Positions 4,311 through 29,294 of a DNA stretch of 35,920 bases are shown in pieces. The first letter of the stretch is position 1, and every line of letters starts with the position of its first letter. The stretch covers positions 1 to 35,920 of the forward strand of contig QPGO01000379.1 of NCBI GenBank assembly GCA_008632985.1. Direction: 5' to 3'. Both the position numbers and the translations under genes were made by a program. Under the pieces are notes generated by a model. That model did not search any database, was not told the DNA's origin, and saw only the letters and a program-made list of their open reading frames with translations. The stretch is from Psammoneis japonica (taxonomy: Eukaryota).

Positions 4311-4609
4311 CTTTCCGGTGAACAGACAGCAAGTTGTGTGCCGTTCGTGGCGAGACTTGTACCGAAGCTTACAGCAGCTTGCGTAAGTAGGATACATACG
4401 GGATGCGTCGTGGAATACATTGACCATTGACCCGCGAACCGAACACTGCCAGCACGCATGATCAGGTTGAGCGAGAATAACACACACTCAATGTGAGAGC
4501 ATGCCAAACAAGCAAACAGACAGCACGACTGAGAAAAGAAGGACAAAAATAAAACGATCATGATGCAAGATGCAAGCATGATGGAGATTTTTCGACCACA
4601 GCTGGTTTA

Positions 4610-5585
4610 ACAGGGTCCCCCCTTGTTCATCCAAAAATTACCGTGACATTTGAATAAAGCTGTTTGCTGAGTGATGATTTTTGAACACAAAAACGTTCAC
4701 ACATTTGCCCAAAAACGCCCACACATTTGCCCTGGATCGCACACGAAAACCAGAGCATCGAGGAGGTGCTCTCTCAATCAAGGAGGAAAAGGAGCATGAA
4801 CAGCTGCAGCCATCAACACATTTCTCAAAATTGCAGTCTGCCAGCAACACACTCTCACCTGACACACTGACCATGCAATGCGCGGCGAGCATGGCGGCAC
4901 CAATCGAGAGGGCTGTGCCTCTGTGTGCCTGTCTGTCACAAACTTGTGGTCACAAACTTGTGGCTTTTGGTTTTCACCACAGTGTGGAGCACAGTGAAAT
5001 AAAAAATCAGGCAAATCATGAGCTGTTTGTTGGCCAAATTCAAGCAGAAAAAAGCAGCAGCAACTGGCCGCCCCCTTGACCATGCTTCTGTTCTGAGATC
5101 TTGCAATGACTTGCCAGGTTTTCATTCATGACAGGCCTGCCAGGCTGGATTGCTCAATCAATGGCAAGCAGAGAGCCCTTGTGATGCCATCGGGGTTGCT
5201 GTGCTGTGCTGTGTGTGGCAGGGTGCATGCGCCGGCACTCTCTGGGCGCTTGCCTGCTTTTGTGTGGTTTGCACGTTGTTGAGCAAGGTGCACAAAAAAG
5301 GGCACTTGCCCCTGGAAACAGCTTTTGTTTCTTCAGTGCTGTCATCATCATCACAACAATGACCGTGCCTGGATCATCGTGCCTGTGCTGCCCTCGCCCC
5401 CACAGCCATCTTTTGCGCCTTTCTTCATCATTCTTGTGCCTGACTGCGGTCTGCAGCATCTCTCTTTTTCAGACAAGTGTCAGTCTTAAAGGCAAGATTA
5501 GGGTTGTCAGTTGGGCCTCAGAATGATTGAAGAGGTGATGTTGTGCAAATACAGAGTGTTGTTGTTATGATCATTGTGTTTTCTC
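4610..5585. other. TpA/CpG-depleted island; decayed repeat or gene fragment of unknown origin
   Basis: Only one TA (5000-5001) seen between ~4657 and ~5486. CA/TG is strongly enriched and the ORFs are Cys/His-rich and Tyr-free. Boundaries are approximate. Confidence 0.7.
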
Positions 5586-5602
5586 CATGTAAGCAGGAGC
5601 GA

Positions 5603-5661
5603 CAGAGGGTCATTCAATATATATCGTATCCGACTCGTATACATGTATTGAATGACCTCTG
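5603..5661. repeat. Short inverted repeat / hairpin (possible MITE remnant)
   Basis: cagagggtcattcaata ... tattgaatgacctctg: ~16-20 bp arms with one indel. Confidence 0.65.
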
Positions 5662-5999
5662 CTACAGAAATCTTAGTGTCCGAATACGCCTATAATTTTT
5701 TTGTCGTGGCACAAAAACTGGGACGAACAAAGATGCCATGATCCATGATCACACAAATCCAACTACCATAGCAACAACAGCGGCACACTTCATAAGGTTG
5801 CAAGGCTTAGCTTTAAGGCCTGCTTGTTCGTCTATGCCTCTCAGACGTCGTCCATAATAGAATTACAACACCGATAAGATCGAATTGTTCAATCGTTCCA
5901 TCACACAAGGCGTAGGAACTCGAGTGAGAAGTGAGAAGACAGCAGCAGCTGGGGAAGAATTCTAATTTCATAAGCAATCATCGCAAACAGCACTCTACA

Positions 6000-10996: not shown

Positions 10997-12380
10997 GATG
11001 TGATTCAGCAAGTGACAATGGTTTAATGGCGTATTGTGCGTTTGGTCTGTTGGGTTTCCGACAGTGAAGATTTGATCTCGCGCACGTGTGCGCGGTTATT
11101 AGACTGTGTAGGCGTGTGTGCGTGTGTGAGGTGTAAGTAGAATATACGTAGAATTACTACTGATGAGTTGACAGGCGGTGGATTTTCCGCCGGTACACAA
11201 TCTACGCGGTCTACATGGAACATAAATTTATGTAGGTCTCTTAGGGTTTTACATATCATTGAAATTTCTTGGACCTTGAGGAGATACATACCCAAATTCA
11301 AAAAAGTGAGGAACACCCCGAAACACATTTTAGAGGATGAATAAAAATTATTTCTATATAACGGTCCGAACAGGGTCGCCCCGAAGCGCTTCTCAAAATA
11401 TCTAGAGATTGTATATAGTAAAACATCTACTATTAGCAAAACAGAGTCACTATCGGATAAATAGATCCCGTGTTCTTCGCGCGCAAACAACACGATAACG
11501 CACAACAACACCATGGCGAGAAACGCGAACGCCGTCCCCTCATCTACAAGCTGGGAATACGAGATACTATTGAAGTGGTTGGACAGTGTGTATGCGCTTT
11601 ATTCATGGGTCAAGTTGGGTTTCTTCTCGCTGCTTGTTGTTGCGTCATTTTACAACGTTTTGACCCACGCCGTGTTCTTTGCTTTGTTGCTTCTGCTCGC
11701 GCGCCACCAACAGCTTTTCCTGCAGGGTATGGCCAGTTGCACGGCTGCATCGAACCCAAACGTGCGCGACCAACTAGCCATACCCCGGCTAACTCATATT
11801 GGTCACAATATCTGGAGGGTCGGATTCCATCACTTTTTTTGATGTGTCCAAAACCATCATTGGCACACTCTCGCTAGAGGTGCGTCACAAAACACTGCCG
11901 AAGCGGGTCGAGAGTTGCGTTCAGCAATAGTCACTCTTGTATGTCAGCTCCGGCCGTAGCAGAAAAGTTCATTGCCATGCAACAGTGCACAAAAACTTTC
12001 TGCTGCAGGTATCTCTCTAGCTGGAGATACCACCGGTACGGAAGTTCGCTTGAAACATAGAAGCGAGAAGAGCCAAAAAATGATGACGGATAGACGCAAA
12101 AACAGAATCGAAAATCCCGCCCGCGGTTACCGGAATCCGCCGGTTATGCTTTTGCTTGCTTTACCCGGCTATGGCCAAGACCCAAAAGAATTCAATGATT
12201 CAAACTCACATCATAGCAGAAAGCCCTGTCAGAACCTTTGTCGGCATTTGTCTTTGCCTACAGTACCATAGCTTTTTTATCGTTTTAGCAGAGCGGAGAA
12301 CAAAACTTTCAAACAGCTATGCATTATGCATCATTCCAAGTTCCATACTAGGCCTAGATTCACTACATCCGCATTAAAGC

Positions 12381-13868
12381 CTAACGACCCAGAAAACGGT
12401 CATACAAAGAACGAGATTCAGCGTCAGTTTCATCGTCAAAGTCTTCTGGATTGCTTTCGTCTGTTTCGTAATATGGATCCTCCCAAGCCTCGCCTTCTAC
12501 CAAATCTTGACTCTCGGCGACAAGCGCTGCTTCTTCCTTGGGATCGATGGGTTTCGGAAGCTCCGCTTCGAGCATGCGCCTGCTCATCCTCCATGTGAAT
12601 GTTACATAGTGCAAAACACTCAAGTCTTCCACATCGCTGCCGTACGGATCACTCATTTTCTGTCCAAGTATTCGAAGACCAATGATGAAGATGCAGTTCA
12701 AGAACACAATGAGACCAGAAAGAATGTCGTTCAACCAATGTGCTTCATCGCCACTACCAGCATTGAGAGCAGCAGAGATGGCAAACAAAGGGAGGTAGAT
12801 CGCCGTGAGTAGGCAGATAAAGTGAAGGTAGAAGAAGCTGACCGGTTGGTCGTCCATGTCATACATCACTTTCAGTGACTCGCGAAGCTTGAGGACGACA
12901 CCAAATAGCAAGCCTCTCTGACGATTATCAATCAATTTTGCTTCAAAGGCCGTAATTACTTCGGCCAAGCACCATGTGACAAGTTCTCGATAGGCCGAAC
13001 CACCCATATTTACGTCTATCTTTCGCAAACGATCCATCTCCGCTTCCGTAAGTACTCGGTTAGCCTTGTTGAATTCTACAAAGAAATTGTTGAATGTGTA
13101 GGTGGAAGACAGGCCTACATACCCTGCAACATGCTGATAAGAAAAAAAGAATACAGTATTAGCCACCTCGAGGAAGAGCCTTGACCAGCCGAATCAATGC
13201 ATCAGTAAACCCAAAGTACATATTACCAAGGCATTCATGTAGCGGATGAAACGAAAGGCATTATCTCTCGGCATGATTGTCTTCGCGATGCCCGCTCCAT
13301 CTAAGATACGTCCTTCACAGGACATTGAGTGACCATAGAGTGAATCAAACCTCTTGTTGCAGGAAACAACAAAGAATACTGTAAACAGAAAAACAACACA
13401 ATCCGCGTTTAGCTTCTAGCCCAAATGGAAGGCGATTGAACCACAATACAAGGCAAAAATATACAGCGTACCCAAAAAGAAGATGAGAAAACCTCCAATG
13501 CTTGCAATGTCTGCACCGCCTAGTTCAGAGAAGAACTCAGGTAGCCCACCGAGCCTTGCTCCAAGCCGGACGCCGACGTAGAGTATCATGCAAATCCACA
13601 TGAGTGGATCGTGAAATAATGCATTTAGAACGGTGCCGTCCCAGAAGCAGAGAATGCGAAAGAACGGAAGCTCTGTTCGTTCCAGAATTGCACGTCGACG
13701 GCGCTCGATGCGGCACAGTTCCTCCCACGACAGCTCATCGTCGCTGCCTACTAAGAGTTTCGTAACCGTGCTCTTCAACGCCTTAGAGGCGGATCTCGAT
13801 GCGGATCTTGATGCGGGTTTCGATGCGGTTTCCGAGGAGGACTTCGAGGTGGATTTCGAGGCGTTCAT
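12381..13868 (-). CDS. Bestrophin-like anion channel
   Basis: PVSFFYLHFICLL and LGQKMSDPYGSDVEDLSVLHYV (bestrophin DPxGxD motif), plus N-terminal FWDGTVL and transmembrane segments. Two introns at ~13381-13469 and ~13135-13225. Confidence 0.8.
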
Positions 13869-14520
13869 GATAGATGCTGCGACTCGTAGCCCTATGTGAA
13901 GACTTGGGAACGAATTGTTGGTTGGACGAAGGATGGAATACCTAAATTATTGATAGAAACAAACTCCAAGGCACATCCGGTGCGATAATACTATGCACGG
14001 GAAAACAAAATGCAAAAAAACTTGAAAAAAATAATAAAAAGCGAGAGAAGATCGATGTCAGCTGCCTCGCGTCACCTTCAACCAGGCAAACCTTCAACAA
14101 GGGACGTGCGTAGCGTGCCGTCCGGTGGGTGTCGTCCAAGGACATACGGTAGTTATATCCTTGATACGGCACGGGTGGTCACCTTCCATGTCGGACTTGA
14201 TTTTAATTTTTGAGTAGCGGCAGATTCTACGGTATGATGTGGTGCAGCAAAAACGACGTCTCTCTGCCCATCCGTGTTTGAATGTCAACTTCTCGGGAAA
14301 TCTGATCAAAGGCGTTGCTCTTCACCATGTGAGTCAAAATGACTGTGATCAGACGACGTTTCAGTTGAGTTCCTACAAAATCATTGGCTTCAGCCACCCT
14401 TTTGCATGACATTTTGCACATTTGCACATGATTTGGTGCATTTTTCCTCATGCAAAATGTTGGTTGTGACTCTCGCGACATTTTTGAGCGAGACTTCTGT
14501 TGTGGTGACGGGTGAGCCAC

Positions 14521-14900
14521 AAACAAAAATGAGCAAGACCATGATGGCAAGAGGCGGTGGTGGCGGCAGTGCAAGAAGCACAAGTCTGTATCTGCCAAGT
14601 GCTGCACAGCATTCCAGCATGAGCCACCCGCCCACAACAAGGTGAAACAGCCAGAGCAAAAAAGGCTCTGTCTGCACTCGAGTTTGCCGTGCTGCTGTGC
14701 TTGCCTGTTGGCTGCTGGTGCCACCCAATCTTGCTGTTTTGTGTGATGGTCAAGAAGGTGTTGGCCCCTCCTTCTGAAAAAGATCCAGCTCATTTCTTGC
14801 AGCTCATCAATGACAGCCCCTGTGTGCCAAGGGAATTTTTTGAGCACAAAAACCCAGCAACAAATGGCAGCACAACAAAAATGAGGCAAGCTCTCCTCTG
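14521..14900 (+). pseudogene. Decayed copy 1 of the 5' end of the GT14 gene (24073-24420)
   Basis: Colinear similarity, e.g. aaacaaaaatgagcaagaccatgatgg vs aaataaaacgagcgaaaccatgatgg. Residual peptide KKVLAPPSEKDPAHFLQLINDSPC matches KKVSVPPSEKDPVHLTLINDSPC. Confidence 0.9.
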
Positions 14901-15646
14901 TTGAGCTGAAATGCCAGCCTGTTTTTTGAACCAGCTCACATGCATCATGGCGCAGCTGGCAAAATGATCTGCAAAACACAACATGCTGTTGCGAGCCAAA
15001 ACACCACCGCCGCCCCTCTCATGTTTCTGCTGCATGGCATTGTCCCCCACAATTGAAGCTCACAAGACTGCCAACTTGGCACTGAGAACTCTGTTGCCTG
15101 TTGTCTGCATTTTGTCTGCTGGAAGCACAAATCTGTGTCTGCTGAGTGCTGCACAGCATTGCAGCATGAGTCATCCCACAAGATGAAACAGCCAGAGCTT
15201 GCCGCGCTGCTGCTGTGCTTGCCTGTTGGCTGCTGGTGCCACCTGATTTTGCTGTTTTGTGATGGCCAAGAAGGTGTCAGCCCCTCCTTTTGAAAAAGAC
15301 TCAGCTCATTTTTCCCCGCTCATCAATGACAGCCCCTGTGTGCCAAGGGAACTTTTTGATTTTTTAGCAAAAAACCCAGCAAATGGCAGCACAACAAAAA
15401 TGAGGCAAGCTCTCCTCTGTTGAGCTGAAATTTCAGCTGTTTTTTGAACCAGCTCACATGCACTGTGATGCAGCTGGCAAAACAACCTGCAAAACACAAC
15501 ATGCTGTTGTGAGCCAAAACAGCACCACCATCACCCCTCATGTTTCTACACGGCAATGCCCCCCACACACACAATTGATGCCCACCATGAGACTGCTGGC
15601 TCAGCACTGAGGACTCTGTTGCTTGTTGTCTGCATTTTGTCTGCTG
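14575..15646 (+). repeat. Tandem duplication, two units of ~530-545 bp (14575-15120 and 15121-15646); unit 2 carries decayed copy 2 of the GT14 5' end
   Basis: Both units start gaagcacaa.tctgt.tctgc, share aaaaatgaggcaagctctcctctgttgagctgaaat and end ttgtctgcattttgtctgct. Confidence 0.9.
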
Positions 15647-15758
15647 CTCCCCCCAGCCAACCTCTTTTGGCTTTGTTGTGCCCAACCGCAAAAAAGCGTG
15701 TGATTTTCCTGTGGTGAAATCCTGGAATTTTGCATCTGACAATTGCAGGCAAAAAAAA

Positions 15759-15850
15759 CAGCAGCAGCAGCAGCAGCAGCAGCAGCTGGGTGATGGTTGT
15801 CATTTCAAACCATTCTGTGTGTGTGTGAGTGTGTGGGTGGGTGGGTGGGT
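15759..15850. repeat. Microsatellites (CAG)9, (TG)n and (GGGT)n
   Basis: Seen directly: cag x9 at 15759-15785, and tgtg.../gggt repeats at 15815-15850. Confidence 0.9.
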
Positions 15851-17039
15851 TGTCAAAACAAGGCAGATGTTTGCTGCAGCAAGGAGCACATCTAAAAAAT
15901 GATGCCATCAGCAAGTTTTTGTCCACTCAGTGCCCACGCCAACATGTTTTGGGGGTGTTGCACCAGCATCATGTTTGCTCCACACAGGGCCTCACCCACC
16001 CCCTGAAATTCACTTGAGTCAAACATTGGACTGACCAACAATGTGGCTGAGTCACAGGACTTTGAAAAAGTGGATGCACACATTTCCAGCCCATCCACCT
16101 AAAATCAGCTGCTGCTGCTGTCATGCTGCGCACCTTCTGGTGCTTTTCCAATGACAAGCAATGAGCGCACAAATTGAACAATCATCAAAAGTGAAAGTGG
16201 TGCTTGTCTCTACAATGCTTGTTTCAAAGATGATCATCTTGATGCCACCAACAACCCCCATCCTGTGACTCACATGTGTGATGGACCTGCGGTGCTGTTG
16301 TGAGAAAATTGGGTGTGTTGATTTGCAGCTGTGCATCTTGTGGTGCAGTGTCATGTTTTGATGGTTTTGCCTGTTGCCTGCCCTTGTCTTGCTCAGAGTT
16401 GTTTGTTTCATCTCATGTTCTGGTGGGTCAAGATGCCAATGTTCCATTGTTCACACTGCTGGTGCCATGTGAGTGACATGCTGCTGGATTGAGCTCAACC
16501 TGAGTGACCAGCATTGTCGGTCAATCTGGGGTGCATCAGGAACTGCTTCTCATTGATTGTGCATGACAGCTGGACTTGAAACCTGACAAAAACACCTGGA
16601 TTGGCTTGCACATGACAATTTGGACTGATGTTGGGTGCCTGGTTCATTTGGTCATGTGTCTCCATGCAGTTGAGGGCAATCTTGTTGTTGGGTCCATTGG
16701 AGCTGCTTTTGCATCATCATTTGTGCATGATGGTCAGACTTGGAAACTGACAAAAATGCCTGGATGTTCAACTTGTTTGGCCGTGTGTGCTCTTGGAGTT
16801 GAGGAGCATGATCAATCTTGCCCTCACCCTCATTTTTGGCAGCCAAGGCACTGGAGCTGACCTCATGCTGCTTTTGCATCATTTGCACATGATGGCTTTG
16901 CTTGGAACTCAACTGGCTCTTGTGCAACAATTTTGGACTGTTGCAGTGTGTTTGATCTGTTTGGTTGTGCACCCTTGCACAGTTGAGTGTCATTTTTCTC
17001 ACGACCCTGGCCCTCATTGCTGGGCGTGCTGGAGCCACT

Positions 17040-17200
17040 TTTGCATCAATTGCAGCATTGTAAAATCGTTGACTTCCTCCCAACAATTGAGGATTGCAAC
17101 CGTCGATTGCACCAGGCTTTGCAGCAATCGAAAGATTGCAATTGCAAAGTGATTGCCACGTGCAACAATCGATTGCAATTGCAACAGCGATTGGCCCCTG
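17040..17200. repeat. Cluster of GATTGCA/TGCAATC motifs, probable hAT subterminal repeats (also at 20220-20300 and 23567)
   Basis: gattgcaac, gattgcaattgcaa and caatcgattgcaattgcaac flank the transposase on both sides. Exact TIRs were not resolved. Confidence 0.55.
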
Positions 17201-17419
17201 CAAGAGTGCCCACTGCGCAGGTGATGGTGCTGCAGGCAAGATTTTTTTGCGATTGAACTGCGTTGCATCTGCTTTTTTGAATGCATCTGACCTGCGTTGT
17301 CAAGGCAAACTGTCAAAAAACATGCTGTTGCTTGCTTGTTGTTTGATGTTTGAAGCTGCAAGGATGCTGATTCCATGATCACTCTTCTGGGTTGATGTTG
17401 TTCTTTGCAATTGTCATCC

Positions 17420-19985
17420 CGCACTGTTGCAATTTCTTCACATGATCCCTGCAATGCGTTCACATGTGCACCATGAATGATTCATTCACACGGAGAATTG
17501 CCAACATTCTGAGTTCCTTCTCATCAAGCAAAGTGTTCCCGTCATGCAATGCCAGCTGTGCAATCGAGCTGATTCACTCGGCACAGCTTTCTGCATTCAG
17601 TGCTCCAATCTGACCACGAGACGAGCCGGCCACAACAGGGAGAAAACCACGCATCTTCCAATTCTTGTCACTCAACTCAAGTTTCTTGCACAGTTTTCCA
17701 ATGTCCAACTTCATGACATCCTGGATCAAGTCTGGCGAATCTGCCAGAATGTCACAAGAAGGGTGCTCTTTGTGCCACTCAATTTCCTTTCGACTCCACC
17801 ATTTGAGTGCTTTTTTGAATTCCTTTGATGCCTTTTCCTTGTCTTCAGTGACCAAAGTGGACTCAATTGGCTCTTCATTGTCCTCTTCACTGTCAGAGGA
17901 GCCAGACTCCTCTCCCCTGAGCTGCCAAGGAAAGACAAGTCCACGGTGTTGTTGATGCTGTGTGATGAGCCGCTGCCCTTGCTCTTGGCACCTTCTTGTT
18001 CAGTCTTGCATCTCTTTGCTGCTTTTGCACTGTTTGATTTCAAATCATCATTCCCAGCAGCCTCATTTGCATGTTTCTTGGCTTTCTTGTTCTTCTGTTC
18101 CTCAGCTCTCTTCTTCCAATTGGCTTGATGCTGGTGCTTGCCGTGTTGCACACAGAACTTGACATGCTTTTTTTACAAACATTTCACGGCACGTTCTTGC
18201 ACATCTTGGGAAAGCACAGAGGTGCACCTTGCAGTGTGAAGATCAAGGAGAAGAGCCAGCAGCTGTCGGTTGTTGAGTGCAATTTTGCCCGGCTCTGAGA
18301 GTCGCTCATTGGTGGTGTTGCCCAAGAATCGCCGCTCAAATTCTGTGATCGCCCTTTCTCAGCACGTGGCTCCTGCAGAAGAGAATGAGGCAAGCTCTTG
18401 CTCACATCATGGCAGATTTTTGTCTTTGCCAACCTTCTCTGGCACGACCATCGACAACTCACTGCTCGTCAATGCATCACACATCATTTTCTGAATTAGC
18501 GGGCCACACGCACTGCAGCACAGAGCATCGCATGCTGTGCCATTTTGGCAAGAACTTGTGTCACTTGGAGCACCACCTCAAATTGCTGCCACAAGGCATC
18601 AGTGAGAATGAAGGCATCCTTGTTGCTGTTGTGGAAGTGAGCAACGCCTCGTTGCACATGAAGGAGCCAGTTCAATGGCTGGTGCCCTGCATCAATCCTT
18701 GTGCCGTTGATGTCCAGTTTGGGTCTGAGGGCGGCAATGCCAGCTTCCTTGCACGCCATTTCCAACTGGGAAAAGCGCTTGTCAAATCGGAAGCACTTTG
18801 CTGCAGATTTTGCTTTGTCCATCACAGCCGCTCCATCCTCGAATGGATCAACTTTAACCTTGTTTTTAGAGCGTGCCAATGCCCCCACTGCAGACTGTCC
18901 TGTCTTGTCTCCGTCATGCACATCACATGCTTCAGTGTCTTCAATTTCAACAAACTGCCGTGACACTCCAAGGGCGGCACTGTCTGATGCCATCAAAGCA
19001 ACAGCTTCCTCCATCGTCAAGTTGCATTGATCGACGAGAGCATGTCTCGAAGTGGCTCGGCAACCTTGTCATCAGCATTGTGTTGTGAATGCTCAAACCC
19101 AAGACAAATCACTGTGTTTTCAATCCACCTTGGATCAATGAACTGCATGCCAGCTGATTGACATTTCTTGCCATTTGCAAGAGTGACTCCATCATGAATG
19201 ACTTGGGCATGGGACAAACCAAAACTCTGCTGCTGTTTCTTGAGCTTAAACATGATCATGGCAAACCGAGTGAAAACTGTAAATTCCACCGACACACATT
19301 GTTTGAGTTTGCATTGCAACAGAGCAGGTGCATTTGGATCTCCGCTGGCTTGACATTTCATCATCTGAACAAAATGCTTGTCCGCAAAGGTGCGACAGGA
19401 GATTGCTTGCTCAGAACATGCACGCCACTGGGCTTGAGATGACAATCTCATTTCATCTTCAGATGGCTCAAACCCTTTCAGTGGATTTTTTACATGCACC
19501 TGAGCATCATCTTTTTCACTGGCCACCACAGCAAAATCCAACTGCTGTTGCTTTTTCATGCTTTGCAAAATCACGATTTTTTTCGCTTCATTCGCGCGGT
19601 CGTCGGGGTGGATGTCCTTCATGTGCTTGATGGCTTTAGAAGCAGTGCAGCAGTGTTTGTCCTTGGGCTTCACCAGCTTCACAAATCATTGGGGACAATC
19701 AGGGAGAGTGCGTGCATGCATGTGTCCCTCTTTTGACTTGGGGTGATCTGACGCCAAGCGAAGCACATGATCCCACACGGGTGACTTGGTCCCTCATTTG
19801 CCAGGGCTGTTTGCTCTTGTTTTGAATGAAGGATCATTTTCCCAAGGAGCAACCTGTGCATTGTCTCCCTGCACACCTTTTTCCAAGTCGTCCACCTTCT
19901 CCTCTACATTTGACCCCGTGTCCACCAATTTCTCACCATCGCTGCCTTCCGACACGTCCATCACATTGTCTGCAGCCACGCTCAT
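17420..19985 (-). mobile_element. Degenerate hAT-superfamily transposase (stops and frameshifts)
   Basis: BED-finger remnant (HACTL...TASKAIKHMKDIH), first catalytic Asp region (QVIHDGVTL), ASDSAA, CxxH (ACDVHDGDK), NGTRI, and a C-terminal dimerisation region (QIGALNAESCAE*ISS...LRVNESFM). Confidence 0.85.
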
Positions 19986-20321
19986 TGCATTCTTCAAAAA
20001 AGAAACCAAATGACCAGATGAAAATGGCACATCAATCGGTCATTGCTCCAAAATTATGAGACCTCATTGAGACTTTTCATTTGTTTTCGGGCATGTCGTC
20101 CAAAATTCACCCTTGATCTGTTGTTCTTGTTTCTCGCGCTTGGTTCTTGTCAGTCCCGTGTTTGCCTCATTGATCAGAAAATGTCCTGGACTCACGACTA
20201 AATTTCACTCATGACTTGACTGCAATCGATCACAAACATGATTGCAATCCTTGTGTCCATGTGATGCAAACAATCAGCAGATTGCAGTCATTTCGATTGC
20301 GGTCCGCAACCGAGTTGTGCA

Positions 20322-23300
20322 ACTCAGAATGCTGCACACTGCCTGACGAGCACGGGAGGTTCTCAACAACCCAAGAGGCAAAGAAATTGCCACTCGGCCA
20401 ATTGTTGAGTCGCTTCTCCGCACACACATTTGGGCATGTGTTGTGCACAGCATCATCACACAGCATTTGTCCAACTCTCCCTCTCGTCGCAGGATGGGTC
20501 ATTGCCATGTGGCGCATCCGCACGGCGGACTTACGAAATTTTGACCATGCACTCCCTCTGGTGGGCAGGATGGGTCAGGCACATGTCCGGTCACGTAGGT
20601 GGCTCCAAGTTTGTGAAAAAAAGAAGAGGAAAAGGAGGAGGAGGAGAGAGGGAGAGATTCATTCGTGCCGCAGTGGGGCATGCACGACGCCCAGACGATT
20701 GGCGCTTCCGATGCATGTGGCTGCTGGGCAGTCGCAGCTCTCTAGCCAGTGAAGACTCCAATGACAGCAACATGCCATGATCCATCTAAATGCATCATCT
20801 GCTGCTTCATTGCTCACAGAAAATTTACACGCACACTGCCAACGCTGCCGTTGAGATGCGCAGCTGCCGATGAGCCAGAACTCCATCACTTTTGAAAGCC
20901 GGCTCCACCTCATTTCCTCTCTGGCAGACCCAACTAGATGCAAAAAGATCCACAATCTGATTCCCTAAAGGAACAACTGTTGTCAAAGGACTTGAGTCGT
21001 GCAGAGCATTGGCATGGAAAGGCCACTTTAAGCGCTCGCAGTCCCAGATGTCCATGCTGAAAAAATGACAGGCAAAATGAAAACATGAGTGGAACAACAT
21101 GCACAGTGACAATTCATTGGAGCAACATGTCACAGTGTGCTCACTGGGGCACCTTTTAGAGGCAGAGCTGAGTCGCCTTGCCAATTTTTATGCCCCCAAG
21201 TGCCATCAGTGGTTCGTGGCATCCGCACATTCAAGAGGAGGCGATGAGCCTGCCAACACAAGCCTCAACCTCCCCATTTTACACATTGTCAAGCCTGGAG
21301 TCGTAGTTGCACCATCAAGATCTCCCAAAATGATGCGGACGACATCATGTCTTGCATGTTGATGATGATGCGGTTGAAGGGCAGGTGGAAAGGATCACTT
21401 TAGACCAGACACCTGCACGCATGAACGAGGCGCACAAAAAATGCTCGTGAGGCATGCAAGTTTCTTCAAAACGAGTCAAACACTCAAACAATTACAACAC
21501 ACTCGTGGGATTACCTTTTTTGGACTGTGACAAGACTGTCTGACAATTGCCATCATCGCAAGTGTCCTCCAGGCTCCATCGCATCATTTTGTTCCTACGG
21601 CATGCACTTTCCAAAAATTGTGATGGCTGAAACACAACATGCCGTGATTGTGTGCCGACCAAGCCCCCAAGAAGGATGTCAAGCAAGTCACAAATCCACA
21701 TCAATGTACACAATGGGTGCACCAAAGGATGTAGAGTGGGGTGAAGCATAAAGATCCCAAACAGGTGTGCTTTGGCGGCACCAACAACTTGAAAAACATG
21801 CCAACATCACAGATGCAACAATCGCCCACATGAGATGATCAATCCACCTTGTGAGCTGAAACAAAAAACAACAATGATCTTTGGCAAATGGGAAAACGAA
21901 ATAAAATTAAAAACACGCACAAAGAACTCACCTCGGCGACGTTGTCGACCATTCAGATGTTGCCCGCAGCATGCAGCAATTGAGGCACGAGTCGATGCAC
22001 GCAACCGTTTGCACCGTGTGTCGCAACCAAAGCCCCCCAGGGAACCAAGTCAGTGTGTCAAATTTTTTACAACAGCAACAGAAAGAGATCACACATGGAA
22101 AACACGTCTGCCCCATGATGTTTGCCATGCCGAGACACATCAAAGTGCAATGTGCATGGCCATTTCTTGCGGTGCGATGTGCCAAATTGGGATCATTTGA
22201 GTGGAATGAAGGAAATGAAGAGGATTCCCTCTTTCGTGTCGTTGTGCAACTTGCACCAGATTGGACCGTTCCTTTCTGCTTGTCGTCACAGAAATGGAAC
22301 TGTGTTGTCATGGGATTCTGCGCAAGTTCCAGTGCATTTCCCACACAGTTCATGAAGAGCCACCTACGCAGCTGGACGATTGCCATGGGTTAGCACCATG
22401 TGGCGCATCCGGCCATGCCAAGCCAAGGGAGGAGTGGGTTTGAAGCCCAACCGCCCACCCCGGATGGGGTTGGAAAGGGGCAGGCCGAGAAAGAAAAGGA
22501 GGCTTGGATTTGAGGCCGACTCGAACGAGCGACCTCAGGAAGCGTAAAGACTCATGACCACTCAGAATGCTGTACACTGCTGCTGGTGCCCAACAAGTGC
22601 GGGCGGTTCTCAACAACCCAAGAGGCAAGAAATTGCCACTCGGCCAATTGTTGAGTCCCTTCTCCGCACACACATTTAGGCATGTGTTGTGCACAGCATC
22701 ATCACACAGCATTTGTCCAACTCTCCCTCTCGTCGCAGGATGGGTTGTCACCATGTGGCGCATCAGCACGGCGGACTTACGAAATTTTGACCATGCACTC
22801 CCTCTGTTGAGCAGGATGGGTTAGCGCCATGTGGCGCATCTGGCCAAGGGAGGAGTGGGTTCGAAGCCCAACCGCCCACCCCGGATGGGGTTGAAAAGGG
22901 GCAGGCCGAGAAAGAAAAGGAGGCTTGGATTTGAGGCCGATTCGAACCAGCAACCTCAGGAAGCGTAAAGACTCACAACCACTCAGAATGCTGCACACTG
23001 CCTGACGAGCACTGGAGGTTCTCAACAACCCAAGAGGCAAAGAAATTGCCACTCGGCTGATTGTTGAGCCCCTTCTCCGCACACACATTTGGGCATGTGT
23101 TGTGCACAGCATCATCACACAGCATTTGTCCAACTCTCCCTCTTGTTGCAGGATGGGTTGTCGCCATGTGGCGCATCCGCACGGCGGACTTACGAAATTT
23201 TGACCGTGCACTCCCTCTGATGGGCAGGATGGGTTGGCACCATGTGGTGCACCCGGCCAAGGGAGGAGTGGGTTCGAAGCCCAACCTCCCACCCCGGATG

Positions 23301-23556
23301 GGGTTGGAAAGGGGCAGGCCGAGAAAGAAAAGGAGGCTTGGATTTGAGGCCGATTCGAACCAGCAACCTCAGGAAGCGCAAAGACTCACAACCACTCAGA
23401 GTGCTGCACACTGCTGCCGGCACCTGACGAGTGCGGGCGGTTCTCAACAACCCAAGAGGCAAGAAATTGCCACTCGGCCAATTGTTGAGTCCCTTCTCTG
23501 CACACACATTTGGGCATGTGTTGTGCACAGCATCATCACACAGCATTTGTCCAACT
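20322..23556 (-). mobile_element. Tandem TRIM-like non-autonomous LTR retroelement: 4 LTRs and 3 internal segments
   Basis: LTRs at 20322-20476, 22560-22722, 22981-23135 and 23394-23556 (155/163/155/163 bp). 5-bp TSD GTGCA at 20317-20321 and 23557-23561. On the minus strand a PPT (GAGAGGGAG) precedes the LTRs and a PBS-like GGT(TG/CA)TGAGTC follows them. Confidence 0.85.
20578..22384. mobile_element. 1.8-kb TIR DNA element (non-autonomous; GG termini with 8-bp TSD, Merlin/IS1595- or MULE-like) nested in the TRIM
   Basis: 28-bp TIRs ggcacatgtccggtcacgtaggtggctc (20578-20605) and gagccacctacgcagctggacgattgcc (22357-22384) match at 21/28. TSD is ATGGGTCA (20570-20577) / ATGGGTTA (22385-22392). 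Removing the element restores a full TRIM unit. Confidence 0.85.
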
Positions 23557-23639
23557 GTGCAAACAGGATTGCAGTTTGTTGAGTCGTCAGCGATTTTGTG
23601 ATGCTGGTCAATTGTCGTGTGTGGTGTCTCACCCTGGAA

Positions 23640-23735
23640 TGGCTTTTGTGCAACTGCGTTGGCTCATGTGCAACAATTTTTGACTGTCATTGTGTGTTTG
23701 GTCTGTTTGGTTGTCCCCGCCCTTGCAGCTGTGAG
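23640..23735 (+). repeat. Dispersed direct repeat of ~16890-16985
   Basis: ggctcatgtgcaacaatttttgactgtcattgtgtgtttggtctgtttggttgt vs ggctcttgtgcaacaattttggactgttgcagtgtgtttgatctgtttggttgt. Confidence 0.75.
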
Positions 23736-24091
23736 CCAGAGCTCGAAGCTGTTGTTGGGTGGCTTGAAAGCGAGGAGACAAGACGTGGAGCTCTTCTGAG
23801 GCGTGTGGCTTCCACTTGCATTCCAGTCCAGTCATGTGCCATGCAACATAAGCAAGGAATGTTCAGCTCTACCACATGGCAGCTCATCGCAATGTTCTGC
23901 CTGCAGCTCTGCTTTGGCTGTTCACATGGCCGGGAGGATGTCGCGATGCGCCATGCTTTGCGACGCACATGCAGACGTGCGCGTTTTATCCCTTGCGATT
24001 TTTTTTGCGGGCGGACGACGGCGGACGCGCAATGACGAGACGACATACAGACATACAGCAACATACAATAGGAAATAAAACGAGCGAAACC

Positions 24092-27000
24092 ATGATGGAA
24101 GGCGACGGCAACGGTGTAAGAAGTACGTCTATGTCTACAGAATACAGTACAGTGTTTCAGCATAAGCATAAGTTATCCTATGAGATGAAACAGTCAGGGC
24201 GCAAAAGTATTCCGTCGTTGTTTGCGTTCAAGTTTGTCATTGCTCTGCTTGCCTGTTGGTTGCTGCCATCCAATCTCCTTGTTGTGACGGCCAAGAAGGT
24301 ATCAGTTCCTCCTTCTGAAAAGGATCCGGTTCACTTGACACTTATCAATGACAGTCCCTGTATGCTGGAAGTGTTTTGGGTGAATCCCGCCAATGGCGAC
24401 ACGACAAAAATGAGCTCTCCTCGGTTGGAGCCCGGAGGTTCGTTGCCTCTGAATTCCTACGAGGGACACAAGTTTGAAGTACACAATGTGCTGAGCAAAT
24501 GCTGTGGCTCGACAAAGGATAACTGTAATCGAATGAATAGCTTTGTCATGACGTCTCAACCGAAACAAGTGATGCGTGTCAAGGATGGACTCGAGTTTGT
24601 TCTGGAAGAAGGCCATGACGGCGGAGATGGCTCTACTCTAGTTCGAAAGACGGAAGCCAATGGTCTGACACGGCATGCCAGGACAAATCAAAGGACTTTG
24701 GTGAACTTACATGACTTGGATCTGGAGGCGAATAAAGAATTAGACTTGGGAGTGGACGATCCAGCAGAGGCTGCGAGACAAGTCATGAACCGCATTGGAG
24801 CCACTGTGAGTTAGTCAATGCCTCTTTTATGTTGTGTACAAGCTGCAACATTGCTGTTTTCTCTCACATATTACTACTTTTTCGTTTTCTAGTTGCACAA
24901 GCGAATGACTAAGGTGTTTGAAAAGGCTAAGACAAGGGAGTGTCGCGCATTGATTGGTGAGCACTTTGGATATTTTGTCAATGCTCTTGGGACGGAACAC
25001 AGCATTCCATTTGCCGACGTTTCGTTTGAAAACCAATGCAATGAAACCAAATATGACCTTGATAACTTGCCGGAAGGCATGCATTTTGGGCATATTCAAA
25101 ACAGAACATACCAGCCACCGCGAGATGAGGCTGAATACATTGACGACCCGGCCAACCTCAAGCTGTGCTATGCTGTATTGACGCACGACGATGCGGCTGC
25201 GACTATTCGATTGATTGAAGCACTGTACGAAGAGGGCCACGTGTTTGTTGTGCATGTGGATGGCAAGGAGAGCAGTGATGAGGTACAAGAGACACTTACA
25301 AAGTACGCCGCTTCGAGGGATCATGTTCACGTTTTGCAGCAACCATATCGAGTGCGAGTCAACTGGGGCGGATTTTCTATGGTGAATGCCACCTTACAAG
25401 CTTTTAAATACGCTTTTGCAGTTGATCAGGCGCATTCGGAGCCACTTGATTTCCACAAGATGGTACACATTGCGGCATCATCGTATCCAATCGCATCTAA
25501 TACTGAGATTCGGAGGCGCATTGCGTCATACCCTCTCGATGCCAATATGATGAACGTAATTATGAAACCGAGCAAGATCCACCCGCACAATTGGCATTAC
25601 TTTGTAGAATGCGATGACGCCGTGCATAGAATCTATCGGCTCGAGCCCATGACTGAGAAACAGGGAAGCATTGATCTCTACACATCCAGTCAGTGGTTCA
25701 TTTTTAGTCGAGAGTTTACTAAGTACATTGCCGAGGCACGCCCGGGGACCCTAGTCCACGACTATCTCGAGTACGTTCAGCATGTCGTCGTTGCGGATGA
25801 GACCTTTTTCGGTACTGTTTTGAGGAATACTCCATTCTGTCACAAGCACCACAACACGAACTTTTTGCATCTTCAATTCGACAGGTAAGTTTCGTGGCAC
25901 TTCCGTGAACGAAGGCTTTTTTAGAATTGCCTCACGCTTTCCCTGTTCTCCTTTGTCAGGTGGGAAAGTGAGTTGGAGCAAGGGAAGCGAGATGAAAGGA
26001 AATGCCTTATGCCTTCACCAGACCATTGCGGGAGATCACCAACGACAATGACAGTGGACTACATTGATGTTTTGGAGCTCTCGGAAGACCTCTTTGCACG
26101 AAAGTTCTCTGATTCAGCCGACTCAAAAATCAAGGACTATCTTGACATACATCGAGCAAAAGAAGAAGAACAACTGAAATCGGGAACAGATCTACCTTTG
26201 AATGTGAAGGGACCGGAGAGTGGCTTCACAGAGCACGGCGTGATGATCTTGGCCAAAGAAACGGTACAGAACGACAAGCCCCTATGCCTTGGACTCGGAG
26301 ACACCGGAAACAAGGTAGGAACAGGCCTCTACGTGTTTCCTTTATTTGGCTTTTTGCTTTTGGCTGATTTGCCTTGCGCTTTTTTCTACAGCTTCGACTT
26401 GTGCCTTGCTTTCACTCCTGGGTACCAAACACACTTGCGCCAGGCTGGGAAACTGGTGCCGTCATTGAAGAAGAAACACTGCTGCATAATCGCTGGGAGA
26501 TTGGTCCGTGTAGTTCGGATGGATCTCTTGAACGAACGTGAGTCTTGAATGCATGTGTCCTGTTATGGGTTCTCGTAGTCTTTCTTAAATCTATCTTTTT
26601 TCCTTCTTTGTCATAGCCCAACTGGTGAAATGAATATGACCGAGGGAATCTTTAGCCCAATAGGACCACGGTGTATGCTCAAGCAGGTGGATGGAATGCG
26701 TGCTGGCAGGTGCTTGGACGGCGAATCAGAGCGGACACAACCTGGAGGTGACTTGCAAGTCTTCCCGTGCATTCGACGTTGGCATCAATTTGTATCGTTC
26801 GGCAACGGTAACATTACGCCTGCCGGAAGTATGCACACCACAATCCCACGGTACATTGTGAAGAGGATAGTAGAAAGCGGGAAAGATCAGGAACCGTACT
26901 TGTGCCTTGGGGTGCATGGCAGGGGAGACCGTGACGAGGAAGAGTGGGAAGAAGACAAAAAGAAGAACCTAGGAAATAAAAAGTCGAAACCCGTGACAAC

Positions 27001-27307: not shown

Positions 27308-29294
27308 TTACCGAAGTGAGCGAGCGCCCGCTTTTTTCATCCACGCACCGACGATTTGAAAGTTAGAGTCTCCGACTCGGCAGTGGCCGTCTAAAAACTC
27401 ATCACTCAGTTGTGCACAACCCCAAATGTGAACTTTGGTCAAGTTTGGTGTCTTGGATACGAGATATCCCATTCCTTTATCGGTAACGTTTGGGCAAAAG
27501 CTGACATCCAACTCTTTTAACGACGAGGCCGAAGAGGCGGCCAAGCACTCCATTGTATCGTCTGTGCATGATGACCCGTTGATGCCAACATGCACAAGTC
27601 CACCTATCGAGGACACTGCTCCGCTTTGCGCCCTTGCACCGTTGCGGTTCCCTGAAGACGCCTTTGAAACGAGATCCATGACTTGATCAGTAACGGCATC
27701 AAAGGCGCATCCTGTCAAATGCAAGGTTCGAAGCTATGGGAAACGAAACGAAAGTCAGAACATCAAACGAATGAAAGACTGGGAGCTGTGGCTATATAGT
27801 ACTCTAGGTCTTACCATTGGTGGACTCGGTAAGCCAGAGATGCCGTGAGTAAAGAGAGCCTCAAGACCCGCAGCCGTAAGGTTCTTGAGCCCGCAGAGGT
27901 GCAGACTTCTGAGTCCACCGCTTTCGTTGGAGCGCCGAATACCAGAAAGGATCTCGTCAGTAAGACTGTAGTTGTCGCTGAAATCGATTGCTTCCAGATT
28001 GTCTCCTACAGAGTCTAGAATCTTTAAGACAACTTCGTCGTCGACCACCGGGATTTGCCTTAAACCCAGACTTTTTAGATTCCGTAACGCGTCTGACGAG
28101 CATAATCCAATGAGACTCTCTTTGGCAAGAACCAAGTCTTCCAGATTTAGTTCCAACAGGCAATTGTTGCTGGGCGATGCAAAACTCTGGTTAAGAGCAT
28201 TGCAAAAGCTGCTTCCAAGAAGAGGACACGCCTTGAACTCCAAAGAGGAGAGGCTCGACGCTGTAGCAGAGATGAAGGATGCTGCATCATCATCTTTTAG
28301 CAAGTAAGCTCCTCCAATAGATACCGCATAAAGCATGGACTGTTCTTTCGAGAGAGAAACGATTTCCTTGACAGCTTTTGGGCCAAAACATCGCCCAGAG
28401 TGGTTGAGCACCAGAAAACGCAATCCTGCAGGAATAAGAGACTTTAGAGAGCTAGTAAGCAGTTCTTGACTGATTTCTGAGCAGTCGATCAACTCTAATG
28501 TCTGAAAACAAGAACGGGGGTGGCAGTATGAATGAATGTGAGGAAAAGAACACATAGCAACATCTTCAAGTGCAGAAGCATCGTACCTCGATACCAGCTT
28601 CGGCGATTGCTTGGAACGCAGCAGCATCCAACTTGTTCTTAGCTACCAATTCCTTACATACTGCTCTGCGGATCGCGCTGTCGACATTTCCCAGTGCCTC
28701 AACGTACTCGAAATTCTTCACCACAAAATCAAGACAAATCTTGAACAACGAAGGGATCTTGTCGAGATCCCGAGATTGCGCTTGCTGTCTCTTTTGCCTC
28801 TTTGAATAGAGATTCGCAGAAACGTCATGATCGTCTGAAAACTTTGCACGCCACTGAAGTGACGGATGAGCCTTGCGTTTCTTCTCCAGTTCGACTTGCA
28901 TCATAACGTCGTCCAGAGGATGATGAGGCTCATTTTTCTCCTCTTGCTCTTCCTCCCGCTGACGCCGCGCTTCTTCTCGCTTGGCAATCATTTGACGTGC
29001 CACGCTAAAAGGACCACACCATTCTGTCTCTTCGTTGTTTGTCTCTTCGGATGCCGAAATCTTGGCGTGGTATCCAAACGGTGTACTAGCCACGGCACTC
29101 TTTTTACGAGAAGCGTGAGAAAGTTTGGTGGTTCCCGCTCGTTTCTCTGGACGAGCTAAACGAGACGCCTCGCGTTCCGCCACGGCACGGTTACGCTCAC
29201 GCATAGCAGCGGGTAGCCTCGCCCTCTCGTCATCGTCTTCGTCGCTACCATTGTCGGCGGCAAGTCTTGAGCGGGTGCTGCGACGACGAGCCAT
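27308..29294 (-). CDS. Rad7/Rhp7-like leucine-rich-repeat protein
   Basis: WCGPFSVA and IPSLFKICLDFVVKNFEYVEALGNV, followed by cysteine-containing LRRs (LDVSFCPNVTD, VHIWGCAQLSD). Introns at ~28503-28586 and ~27734-27814. Confidence 0.78.

Follow-up and report, generated by a model that had tools for sequence, protein, structure and literature searches.

Why should almost 10 kb of DNA between two genes have lost nearly all of its TpA dinucleotides? The question is raised by a domain at positions 14234..24045 of the window (the whole stretch of 35,920 nucleotides that was analyzed), which lies between two divergently oriented host genes and in which TpA is erased, CpG is depleted, and CpA and TpG are doubled. 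The original prediction for this region invoked an undescribed genome defense that converts A to G in TpA within a cluster of transposons. We analyzed the composition of the domain, the elements within it and their relatives elsewhere, and compared the pattern with known forms of hypermutation.

Composition and edges of the domain

The domain contains 53 TA in 9812 bases, an observed/expected ratio of 0.08 compared with 0.58 in the flanks. The density is 5.4 TA per kb, versus 39.9 per kb across 25.1 kb of flanking DNA, and 1000 mononucleotide shuffles of the domain gave an expectation of 625 ± 19 TA with a minimum of 571. The near absence of TpA over about 10 kb that was predicted is therefore present, as are the three TA-free runs named with it, which we place at 14590-15365 (776 bases), 16212-17061 (850 bases) and 17062-18174 (1113 bases). 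The enrichment of CA and TG was likewise correctly foreseen, with observed/expected ratios of 1.72 and 1.74 in the domain versus 1.15 in the flanks. CpG stands at 0.47 in the domain and 1.00 in the flanks, and declines to 0.09-0.67 across parts of the domain, with TpG and CpA raised in the same DNA. The gain in TG and CA (0.0725 of all dinucleotides), when balanced against the losses of TA (0.0345) and CG (0.0269), fits conversion of the latter into the former. GC-biased gene conversion was rejected because AA, TT and AT have the same observed/expected ratios in the domain and the flanks.

The boundaries of the domain are abrupt. Among 94 windows of 500 bases inside it, the median TA count is 2 and the maximum 8, whereas all 235 such windows outside contain at least 7 (median 19). 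At the left edge, 9 TA occur in 14145-14233 and only 2 over the following 356 bases; at the right edge, 3 TA in 23192-24045 compare with 16 in 24046-24180. Both edges are thus sharp to within about 50 bp. DNA outside the domain that contains no ORF retains TA (observed/expected 0.64; 269 TA in about 5.7 kb), which indicates that absent coding constraint does not by itself yield the pattern.

Within these edges the depletion varies. The observed/expected ratios of TA and CG are 0.04 and 0.20 in 14234-17000 and 0.21 and 0.61 in 20501-22970, and so vary together. Survival of TA across the domain is about 0.07-0.36, versus 0.2-0.64 for CpG. Survival of TpA relative to the flanks also depends on the preceding base, and is 0.02 for A-T-A and 0.18 for T-T-A.

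Two degenerate copies of a neighboring gene

The segment at 24077..24427 (plus strand), just outside the domain, is the 5' end of a gene that is both expressed and spliced. Its exon 1 extends to 24805 and is followed by a GT..AG intron (24806-24892) and by exon 2, which encodes a Core-2/I-branching glycosyltransferase domain (PF02485 at 24893-25885). Splicing is supported by a contig from an RNA-like run (X2) that joins 24116-24805 to 24893-25615. Alignment to this parental segment identified two degenerate copies within the domain, both on the plus strand. Copy 1 (14526..15121) corresponds to the entire segment including its ATG, and copy 2 (15122..15646) is a tandem duplicate of copy 1, to which it is 80% identical. 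The copied fragment begins 16 nt upstream of the ATG, possibly close to the transcript start.

If the coding copy is taken as the ancestral state, the 13 parental TA in copy 1 have become 6 TG, 4 CA and 3 other dinucleotides, and the 11 in copy 2 have become 6 TG and 5 CA, with none kept in either. Replacement of TA by TG or CA, as proposed for homologous copies, thus accounts for 10/13 and 11/11 parental sites. Because the TA fates are common to both copies, the copies are not independent, and the polarized sample really amounts to about 13 sites. Transitions at A or T affect 11/26 bases within TpA versus 25/143 elsewhere in one copy, and 11/22 versus 17/123 in the other. These rates of 42-50% and 14-17% differ (Fisher p = 0.008 and 0.0004), and the TpA excess is given as 3- to 6-fold. 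For A>G pooled over both copies, the proportions are 12/24 in TpA, 2/45 in ApA, 6/40 in CpA and 5/33 in GpA; the change is therefore enriched in TpA over other NpA contexts, in the direction originally proposed. T>C is also fairly high in TpC (13/47) and TpT (12/44), which implies that some excess change falls outside TpA. The copies also carry non-TpA changes, as old DNA would, and their overall difference of about 33-37% from the parent indicates that they are old.

A hAT-like transposase pseudogene

A tblastn search with 150 proteins of one transposase family produced 250 matches, all on the minus strand, and together with fold comparison it identified a hAT-like transposase pseudogene at 17400..19976 that is split over several frames and has no tyrosine codon. 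For one full-length member of the family, the AlphaFold model (pLDDT 77) matched Hermes transposase in Foldseek with an E-value of 1.5e-9 and a probability of 1.0 (PDB 4d1q/2bw3, TM 0.62-0.69 on the target), and the best ten matches were all Hermes, with E-values from 1.5e-9 to 2e-7. The model resembles hAT/Hermes in its RNase-H-like catalytic core with an inserted helical domain, and Asp, Cys-x-His and Glu positions are invariant in the family alignment. In contrast to known hAT elements, the family has no match to curated hAT sequence models, and the copy in the window is a pseudogene. None of 12 full-length family members scored above the cut-off of any Pfam family, and a sequence profile of the family found no match in the PDB.

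None of 857 aligned codons of the pseudogene encodes Tyr, compared with 2.6% in homologues. The 861 Tyr cells of the 150 homologous proteins face Cys (30%), Phe (20%), His (10%) and Arg (8%), and never Tyr. At the eight columns where Tyr is the majority residue, the pseudogene has TGT in three, CGT in two, and TGC, TTT and TTC in one each. Other residues are retained at their columns, with Phe at 14/17, Trp at 6/8 and His at 6/7. The conversion of Tyr codons to Cys, His and Arg codons agrees with A>G change in TpA, although CGT at two conserved columns requires a second change outside this context. A transposase with no Tyr at all, and with Cys and Arg codons at conserved Tyr columns, cannot represent the working state of the family. 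Three of the 150 representatives elsewhere also lack Tyr. With lengths of just 119-175 aa and Phe in place of the conserved Tyr, these are natural variants, and we rejected them as hypermutated copies.

Relatives of the pseudogene bear on whether intact or active copies are equally TA-free, an outcome that would have spoken for inherited composition. All ten metagenome loci of relatives (10/10) have TA observed/expected ratios of 0.24-0.87, versus 0.05 in the pseudogene, in a sample that is biased to intact copies since the search pattern behind it requires an intact motif. The lowest value, 0.24, belongs to two loci (L003 and L004) that both have 64% GC. In several relatives, among them L002 (CG 0.18, TA 0.39), the loss is confined to CpG. 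A paralogue that is about 10% divergent is present in RNA-derived contigs, and has TA or CG at 5/8 listed differences in 17550-17640. Both the relatives and this expressed paralogue thus retain TA. The protein of the paralogue was not found with the ORF at 18496-19068 as query, and the ORF at 19020-19685 matched only P0001, with 38% identity.

Agreement with sequencing runs

Contigs of another run (X1) reproduce the domain sequence at a single-copy depth of about 57. They span both edges (11943-14300 and 24000-24828), and those over 15861-16556 and 16580-17384 have depths of 57-63 with 1 and 2 differences from the assembly, respectively. At one anecdotal site, 16100, the assembly has TA and X1 has CA. 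X1, whose record names no platform, is the only run with this stretch and may be the sample behind the assembly itself. Among the runs listed for the domain there is no RNA run. The X2 run looks RNA-derived, but parts of the domain free of X2 do not count as silent. The TA loss is not an assembly artifact: the X1 letters agree, and within these data TA is present in the flanks and in the paralogue. Miscalling of modified DNA had been raised as a concern, and the same letters in X1 speak against it to the extent that X1 is not the assembly's own sample.

These observations also bear on a broader reading in which TA is absent from the families by nature or modified bases were called wrongly in sequencing. 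A moderate shortage of TA (0.24) does occur among the relatives, and the only run with the stretch may come from the assembly's sample. However, a Tyr-free transposase with Cys and Arg at conserved Tyr positions is not a working state, fragments of a host gene were changed in the same manner, and contigs at single-copy depth agree with the assembly while flanks and paralogue retain TA. We consider inherited composition or misreading very improbable, and conclude that the TA loss in the domain is the result of directional mutation.

Other elements in and near the domain

The contents of the cluster comprise the hAT pseudogene, high-copy repeats, the two neighbor-gene fragments and a stretch of single-copy DNA. 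Contig depth and TA counts show that the single-copy stretch, at 15861..17384, is equally TA-free, with only three TA (16100, 16211 and 17061). A high-copy stretch at 20578..22384 is erased less fully (TA observed/expected about 0.2) and has a word depth of 1500-2200, compared with about 57 for single-copy DNA. The inverted repeat at its ends is weak (28 nt, 75% complementary). Among the elements named by the original prediction, the gene copies are upheld, as is the hAT element by its fold, whereas the TIR element is reduced to this weak inverted repeat.

A 413-bp tandem repeat of 2.7 units lies at 22385..23556 (plus strand). It belongs to a high-copy family, with an array depth of 4600-7000 and an extra fragment at 20322-20586. 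All four TA-bearing columns (4/4) are polymorphic between units, as TA/TG or TA/CA, which, like the TA/CA difference at 16100, would fit erosion that is still under way. A tRNA-like nature of the unit is unsupported, as neither a tRNA nor an Rfam family was found. Because units differ at their last TA sites, and because parts of the domain at a TA ratio of about 0.2 adjoin parts at 0.01-0.07, the erosion looks gradual or repeated rather than a single event. In Pfam searches of 73 window-wide ORFs of at least 120 aa and of 30 further ORFs, no family was found within the domain.

A repeat outside the domain, at 11002..12335, is present in about 45-95 copies according to depth and has no clear terminal repeats. 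It is TA-rich and untouched, and therefore present repeat number does not appear to be the trigger. The signature is regional, bound neither to an element nor to repeats, with the single-copy stretch as TA-free as the repeats. As a whole, the domain groups defunct mobile DNA together with pieces of genes, and a live gene lies on either side of it.

This continuity is pertinent to RNA hyper-editing, in which double-stranded RNA of an element would be edited from A to I, preferentially next to a 5' U, and then copied back into DNA. ADARs have such a preference, as cited in the discussion of the preprint described below, and the gene copy starts possibly near a transcript start. However, the pattern does not delimit a retro-copied unit of the ADAR type: it is unbroken over the hAT DNA transposon, the spacer and the repeats, with common sharp outer edges, so that the entire 10 kb would need passage through RNA. 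In addition, ADARs are to our knowledge restricted to animals. We regard an RNA route as having a very small chance of being correct.

Comparison with known hypermutation systems

The DNA hypermutation defenses that we know of from before 2026, RIP and APOBEC/AID, all act through cytosine deamination. A mechanism of the predicted class is, however, not undescribed: TpA-only A:T>G:C hypermutation has been reported from mutation-accumulation lines of Bigelowiella natans (Mettrop et al., unreviewed 2026 bioRxiv preprint, 10.64898/2026.01.13.699255). According to this preprint, 230/231 mutations in two viral regions are A>G or T>C and every one of these lies at TpA; the rate is about 6e-7 per site per generation, roughly 1000-fold over background, in some lines only. 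The preprint also reports enrichment of DDE endonuclease and reverse transcriptase among low-TpA genes and proposes an ADAT/TadA-type deaminase, with an ADAT2 candidate, Bn78255 (10.64898/2026.01.13.699255). The process has been reported only once, from one chlorarachniophyte. For diatoms, our literature search revealed neither loss of TpA nor its hypermutation. The mechanism class has been described already, and by analogy the diatom case would be its second.

The domain resembles the B. natans case in that TpA alone is affected and becomes TpG or CpA, in that 1-kb windows where TpA is scarce and CpA+TpG abundant are clustered beside normal DNA, and in that the targets are foreign DNA, here the hAT-like pseudogene and high-copy repeats. 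Ten consecutive 1-kb windows (14001-24000) have a rho of at most 0.21 for TpA and a mean rho of at least 1.53 for CpA and TpG. These ten, and 0/25 others, pass the preprint's window cut-offs, which are 5% tails of the B. natans genome; for CpA and TpG we averaged the two rho before applying them. In contrast to B. natans, host-gene fragments and single-copy DNA are also affected, and a Pfam search of the ORFs in the window revealed no viral genes. The lineage also differs, as all best matches of the flanking gene are in diatoms rather than chlorarachniophytes, which places the window among diatoms. Erasure is near complete here (rho 0.01-0.21), compared with 0.45 for a B. natans giant-virus region. 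CpG is co-depleted here, while the text of the preprint contains no mention of CpG. Finally, a live rate was measured in B. natans, and here an end state is read from sequence alone.

Fungal RIP, as in Neurospora, is similar in being a regional transition hypermutation that produces missense changes and stops in mobile DNA and in pieces of genes that were duplicated, with the logic of a defense. Its chemistry is the reverse, as RIP changes CpA to TpA and so creates TA, whereas here TpA is at 0.08 and CpA and TpG are at 1.72 and 1.74. Moreover, the single-copy stretch is erased and the 45-95-copy repeat is spared, and thus duplication, judged by present copy number, appears not to be the trigger.

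Decay of methylated CpG, a process known from diatom transposons, shares with the domain the decrease in CpG and the increase in TpG and CpA. However, deamination of 5-methylcytosine cannot remove TpA, and the loss of TpA (0.08) is deeper than that of CpG (0.47), which indicates that methylated-CpG decay is only part of the picture. Transposons of Phaeodactylum are CpG-methylated. Genome methylation of about 6% is cited in a Phaeodactylum mutation-accumulation paper, which reports a GC>AT bias and, in the available portion of its text, does not mention TpA (PMC6604790). CpG depletion is the one hint of methylation in the domain itself.

A more general form of decay would be passive and slow, with TpA and CpG simply more mutable in methylated, compacted chromatin through ordinary damage or altered repair, and with neither an editing enzyme nor a defense. 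The fragment copies are old, TA and CG losses covary along the domain, and a long context bias limited to this chromatin would arrive at the identical end state. However, TA has disappeared more rapidly than the CpG of the same DNA, the edges are sharp, and B. natans shows the same signature at a high rate in only some lines. We also know of no spontaneous chemistry that is selective for A after T. For these reasons slow decay seems unlikely, though not negligible.

Proposed mechanism

A region-restricted, TpA-specific process turned nearly all TpA in the domain into TpG or CpA and spared DNA a few tens of bases past its edges. Its best overall explanation, to which we assign a probability of roughly two in three, is targeted TpA hypermutation of the B. 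natans kind, with an adenine deaminase as candidate agent, in addition to decay of methylated CpG. The change is from A to G on one strand or the other of TpA, giving TpG or CpA, and methylated CpG would probably become TpG or CpA by ordinary decay in the same domain. Its likeness to the B. natans hypermutation suggests the same kind of process. The likeliest agent would be an enzyme that deaminates DNA adenine after T, such as a candidate polynucleotide deaminase of the ADAT2/TadA type, and this enzyme would be guided to chromatin that is silenced or foreign. U33 always precedes A34 in the tRNA substrates, and a TpA target would fit such a deaminase.

Since TpA is palindromic, A>G and T>C are indistinguishable, and the thymine could instead be the modified base. 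A TET/JBP-type oxidase would produce 5-hydroxymethyluracil or 5-formyluracil at TpA in silenced DNA; these pair with G and yield T>C. The 5-hydroxymethyluracil of dinoflagellates does prefer TpA. However, nothing in the window supports this route, and the B. natans authors prefer adenine deamination; we therefore consider it quite improbable. A bias in T:G mismatch repair of the Vsr/TDG type was rejected, as its context is TpG/CpG and it would not remove TpA.

More tentatively, and at less than even odds in our estimation, a single conserved DNA-editing defense that rewrites TpA in silenced foreign DNA may be common to Rhizaria (Bigelowiella) and stramenopiles (the diatom-like alga), in which case it might date back to the ancestor of the SAR supergroup. 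In diatoms it would be coupled to cytosine-methylated chromatin and would prefer A-T-A over T-T-A, and it could strip a domain of all its TA, and thereby of Tyr codons and of TAA and TAG stops.

Implications and further occurrence

The signature in two unrelated algae suggests, by analogy, a wider DNA-editing defense. If this is correct, the process is more than a peculiarity of a single species, and the diatom-like genome provides a second and far more complete example, in which the end state is visible and the targets include transposons and captured host-gene pieces besides viruses. The enzyme could be found by comparison, among genes common to both lineages and missing in relatives that have no TA-free domains. 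An enzyme that naturally edits DNA adenine in TpA alone would be relevant to genome defense and to base-editing technology. TA-free DNA also presents a hazard for annotation, since it has no TAA or TAG stops and thus contains long spurious ORFs.

A second, small patch with the same composition is present in another intergenic region of the window, at 4656..5487. It contains 1 TA in 832 bases (observed/expected 0.02), with CG at 0.40, CA at 1.79 and TG at 1.82.

Dinucleotide composition of the domain

We identified a sharp compositional change across ~14.2–24.0 kb, where the number of TpA dinucleotides per 500-base sliding window falls from 13–42 to 0–7, CpG drops, and CpA/TpG rise to approximately twice expectation. 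The domain itself (14234–24045, 9,812 bases) contains 53 TA, against 625 ± 19 (minimum 571) expected from 1,000 base shuffles. TA density is 5.4 per kb compared with 39.9 per kb in the flanks (25.1 kb), corresponding to observed/expected ratios of 0.08 and 0.58. The ratio for CG is 0.47 in the domain and 1.00 in the flanks, and those for CA and TG are 1.72 and 1.74, compared with 1.15 in the flanks; AA, TT, and AT are unchanged. As fractions of dinucleotides, the gain in TG+CA (0.0725) approximately balances the losses of TA (0.0345) and CG (0.0269). Depletion of TA is deeper than that of CpG in all sub-regions, and the transition at the domain edges occurs within a few tens of bases. The near-absence of TpA and enrichment of CA/TG over ~10 kb noted in the original prediction are thus confirmed by counts, and its three TA-free stretches are exact on recount of TA positions. 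DNA outside the domain that lacks a long ORF still has a TA ratio of 0.64, which rules out the absence of coding constraint as the cause.

Contigs from sequencing run X1, with a word depth of ~57 as in the flanks, reproduce 15861–16556 with one difference and 16580–17384 with two, and span both domain edges (11943–14300 and 24000–24828). This agreement rules out assembly error and speaks to the basecalling artefact considered earlier, with the proviso that X1 may derive from the same sample as the window assembly, in which case its support is not fully independent.

Contents of the domain and neighbouring genes

The domain is bounded by two genes in divergent orientation. Compact genes of an ordinary eukaryotic kind make up the flanks (Nudix, diphthamide synthase, Rad9, bestrophin-like, Core-2/I-branching glycosyltransferase, P450, JmjC, and PARP-zinc-finger/HRDC). 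Among the best 120 matches to the JmjC ORF, those that are named are all from diatoms (57–68% identity), indicating that the source of the window is either a diatom or something very closely related; this search found no close database neighbour of the organism. Contigs from run X2, which is labelled 'DNA?', omit exactly 24806–24892 (an 87-base GT..AG intron) and 27734–27814, so X2 is RNA-derived. These contigs confirm the two gene models adjoining the domain, and one links 24116–24805 with 24893–25615 over the GT..AG intron, showing that the right-hand neighbour gene is expressed and spliced.

From left to right, the domain carries a tandem pair of degenerate copies of the right-hand gene's opening 350 bases, beginning 16 nucleotides before the ATG (14526–15646); DNA that includes 15861–17384 and is single-copy by X1 contig depth; a broken hAT-like gene on the minus strand (17400–19976); and high-copy repeats that include a 413-bp tandem array (20.3–23.6 kb). 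The hAT-like gene was located by tblastn with 150 members of a family of ~500 proteins, all 250 matches falling on it. Searches of the domain for Pfam families, tRNAs, and Rfam families found none.

Direction and context of the changes

Because the right-hand gene is expressed and spliced, its 5' end (24077–24427, plus strand) is a fair proxy for the ancestral state of the fragment copies. None of 13 parental TA is kept in copy 1 (14526–15121), where six became TG, four CA, and three other dinucleotides, and none of 11 in copy 2 (15122–15646; six TG, five CA), in line with the replacement of TA by TG or CA in homologous copies noted in the original prediction. Transitions at A/T affect 11 of 26 bases in TpA versus 25 of 143 elsewhere in copy 1 (Fisher p = 0.008), and 11 of 22 versus 17 of 123 in copy 2 (p = 0.0004), although TA fates are common to the two copies and the pair therefore counts roughly once. 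With both copies pooled, A>G is found at 12/24 TpA compared with 2/45 ApA, 6/40 CpA, and 5/33 GpA, the enrichment anticipated in the original prediction. T>C is also elevated at TpC and TpT.

None of 12 full-length members of the hAT-like family matches Pfam, and no PDB match was found for the family by sequence. A Foldseek comparison of an AlphaFold model of one member (pLDDT 77) identified the Hermes hAT transposase as a match (E 1.5e-9, probability 1.0), so the 'hAT' label assigned earlier stands. Judged by this predicted fold, the family is a hAT clade not seen by curated sequence models. Its ~500 proteins (represented by P0001 and P0122–P0270; alignment A2) have a full length of 750–880 amino acids and a Hermes-like predicted fold.

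Tyr is missing from all 857 aligned codons of the hAT copy but makes up 2.6% in homologues. Opposite 861 Tyr residues in homologues the copy carries Cys (30%), Phe (20%), His (10%), or Arg (8%), and never Tyr; conserved motifs are altered (WYVYS to WRACS, KKYQ to KKCQ). Its codons at eight Tyr-majority columns are TGT (three), CGT (two), TGC, TTT, and TTC. Other columns are mostly retained (Phe 14/17, Trp 6/8, His 6/7). Since the transposase cannot work without these Tyr residues, the TA-free state arose after, or with, the death of the copy. The two CGT (Arg) codons lie at 19424 and 17651 on the minus strand. To arrive at CGT takes either one more transition, in a context other than TpA, or a new CpG arising after TA>CA/TG, and steps of this kind would slowly return CpG to the domain.

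In the matched part, TA ratios are 0.24–0.87 at all ten metagenome loci of relatives, from a search biased to intact copies, versus 0.05 in the hAT copy; these relatives are thus not equally TA-free, as had been considered under inherited composition. Two loci (L002 and L007) have CpG ratios of 0.18–0.34, CA/TG of 1.56–1.73, and ordinary TpA (0.39–0.54), indicating methyl-CpG decay without TpA erasure in other hosts of the family. X1 and X2 contigs also yield a paralogue ~10% divergent from the hAT copy, which is single-copy at the DNA level and also turns up in the RNA-derived run. An X2 contig of 1,382 letters differs by ~10% from the pseudogene (17524–18986, minus strand) and shares its differences with a single-copy X1 contig. 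At five of the eight differences listed in 17550–17640 (40 of 653 differences being listed), CA/TG in the window corresponds to TA or CG in the paralogue. A closer-to-intact hAT paralogue thus resides elsewhere in the genome, and it appears to be transcribed. Taken together, the gene-fragment copies, the Tyr-free hAT copy, the relatives' loci, and this paralogue point to mutation rather than inherited composition as the source of TA loss.

Comparison with known systems

RIP is a functional analogue that acts in the opposite direction to the change seen here (TpA down, CpA/TpG up), and methyl-CpG decay accounts for the CpG part alone. The original prediction regarded the mechanism as undescribed, but a 2026 preprint already describes it in the rhizarian Bigelowiella natans (bioRxiv 10.64898/2026.01.13.699255). 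There, mutation-accumulation lines acquired 231 mutations in two integrated viral regions, and 230 of these, each lying at TpA, were A>G or T>C; the rate was ~6e-7 per site per generation and the mutations arose in some lines only. The genome carries 124 clusters of 1-kb windows poor in TpA and rich in CpA+TpG, DDE endonuclease and reverse transcriptase are over-represented among low-TpA genes, and an ADAT2 homologue is the proposed agent. Under the cluster rule of that work, ten consecutive 1-kb windows of our domain count as a cluster. In contrast to B. natans, the domain lies in another lineage, its TpA erasure is near-complete, its targets are a transposon and host-gene fragments with no viral gene seen, and CpG is depleted together with TpA. 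Our literature searches found no report of TpA loss or hypermutation in diatoms, and the accessible portion of a Phaeodactylum mutation-accumulation paper (PMC6604790) does not mention TpA.

We file the domain with the TpA hypermutation just described, in a new lineage and a more extreme state. The process is no longer categorically new, but the signature is striking and rare; the domain brings the known cases to two and opens a route to the putative editor through comparison between lineages.

Extent and progress of erosion

The process is regional, as unrelated neighbours, single-copy DNA included, are bounded by one pair of outer edges. A repeat 2 kb outside the domain (11002–12335), with no clear terminal repeats, is TA-rich (0.8–1.0) at ~45–95 times single-copy depth in X1, making copy number an unlikely trigger. 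Within the domain, erosion is weaker in the high-copy parts (TA 0.14–0.21) than in the rest (0.01–0.08), all four TA-bearing columns of the 413-bp units vary between units as TA/TG or TA/CA, and a surviving TA at 16100 is CA in X1. Erosion therefore looks cumulative. TA survival, measured against the flanks rather than the domain's starting composition, is lowest in ATA/TAT (0.02–0.04) and highest in TTA/TAA (0.18–0.31), and survivor contexts are non-random (strand-pooled chi-square p = 4e-7). The main rival is that TA was lost by slow, passive, context-biased decay, which we consider unlikely. A dedicated, targeted process of the B. natans kind made the domain with a probability of roughly two in three, and the direction, context, and regional targeting originally proposed were right; the enzyme and the silenced chromatin of that proposal are putative.

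In 16234–17233 the products are strongly uneven between strands (158 TG versus 93 CA), with positive GC skew and negative AT skew. This would fit mostly plus-strand deamination, or may simply mirror the original sequence.

Other patches in the window

A second, intergenic patch of 832 bases (4656–5487) has the same make-up, with one TA, a CG ratio of 0.40, CA/TG of 1.8, and no Pfam match. This isolated patch shows that islands of less than a kilobase can be marked by the process. Near the P450 gene, a gap of 242 bases without TA (30607–30848) is longer than those that chance gives in the rest of the flanks; there are seven TA (ratio 0.23), with CA/TG at 1.35, in the 500-base window at 30501.
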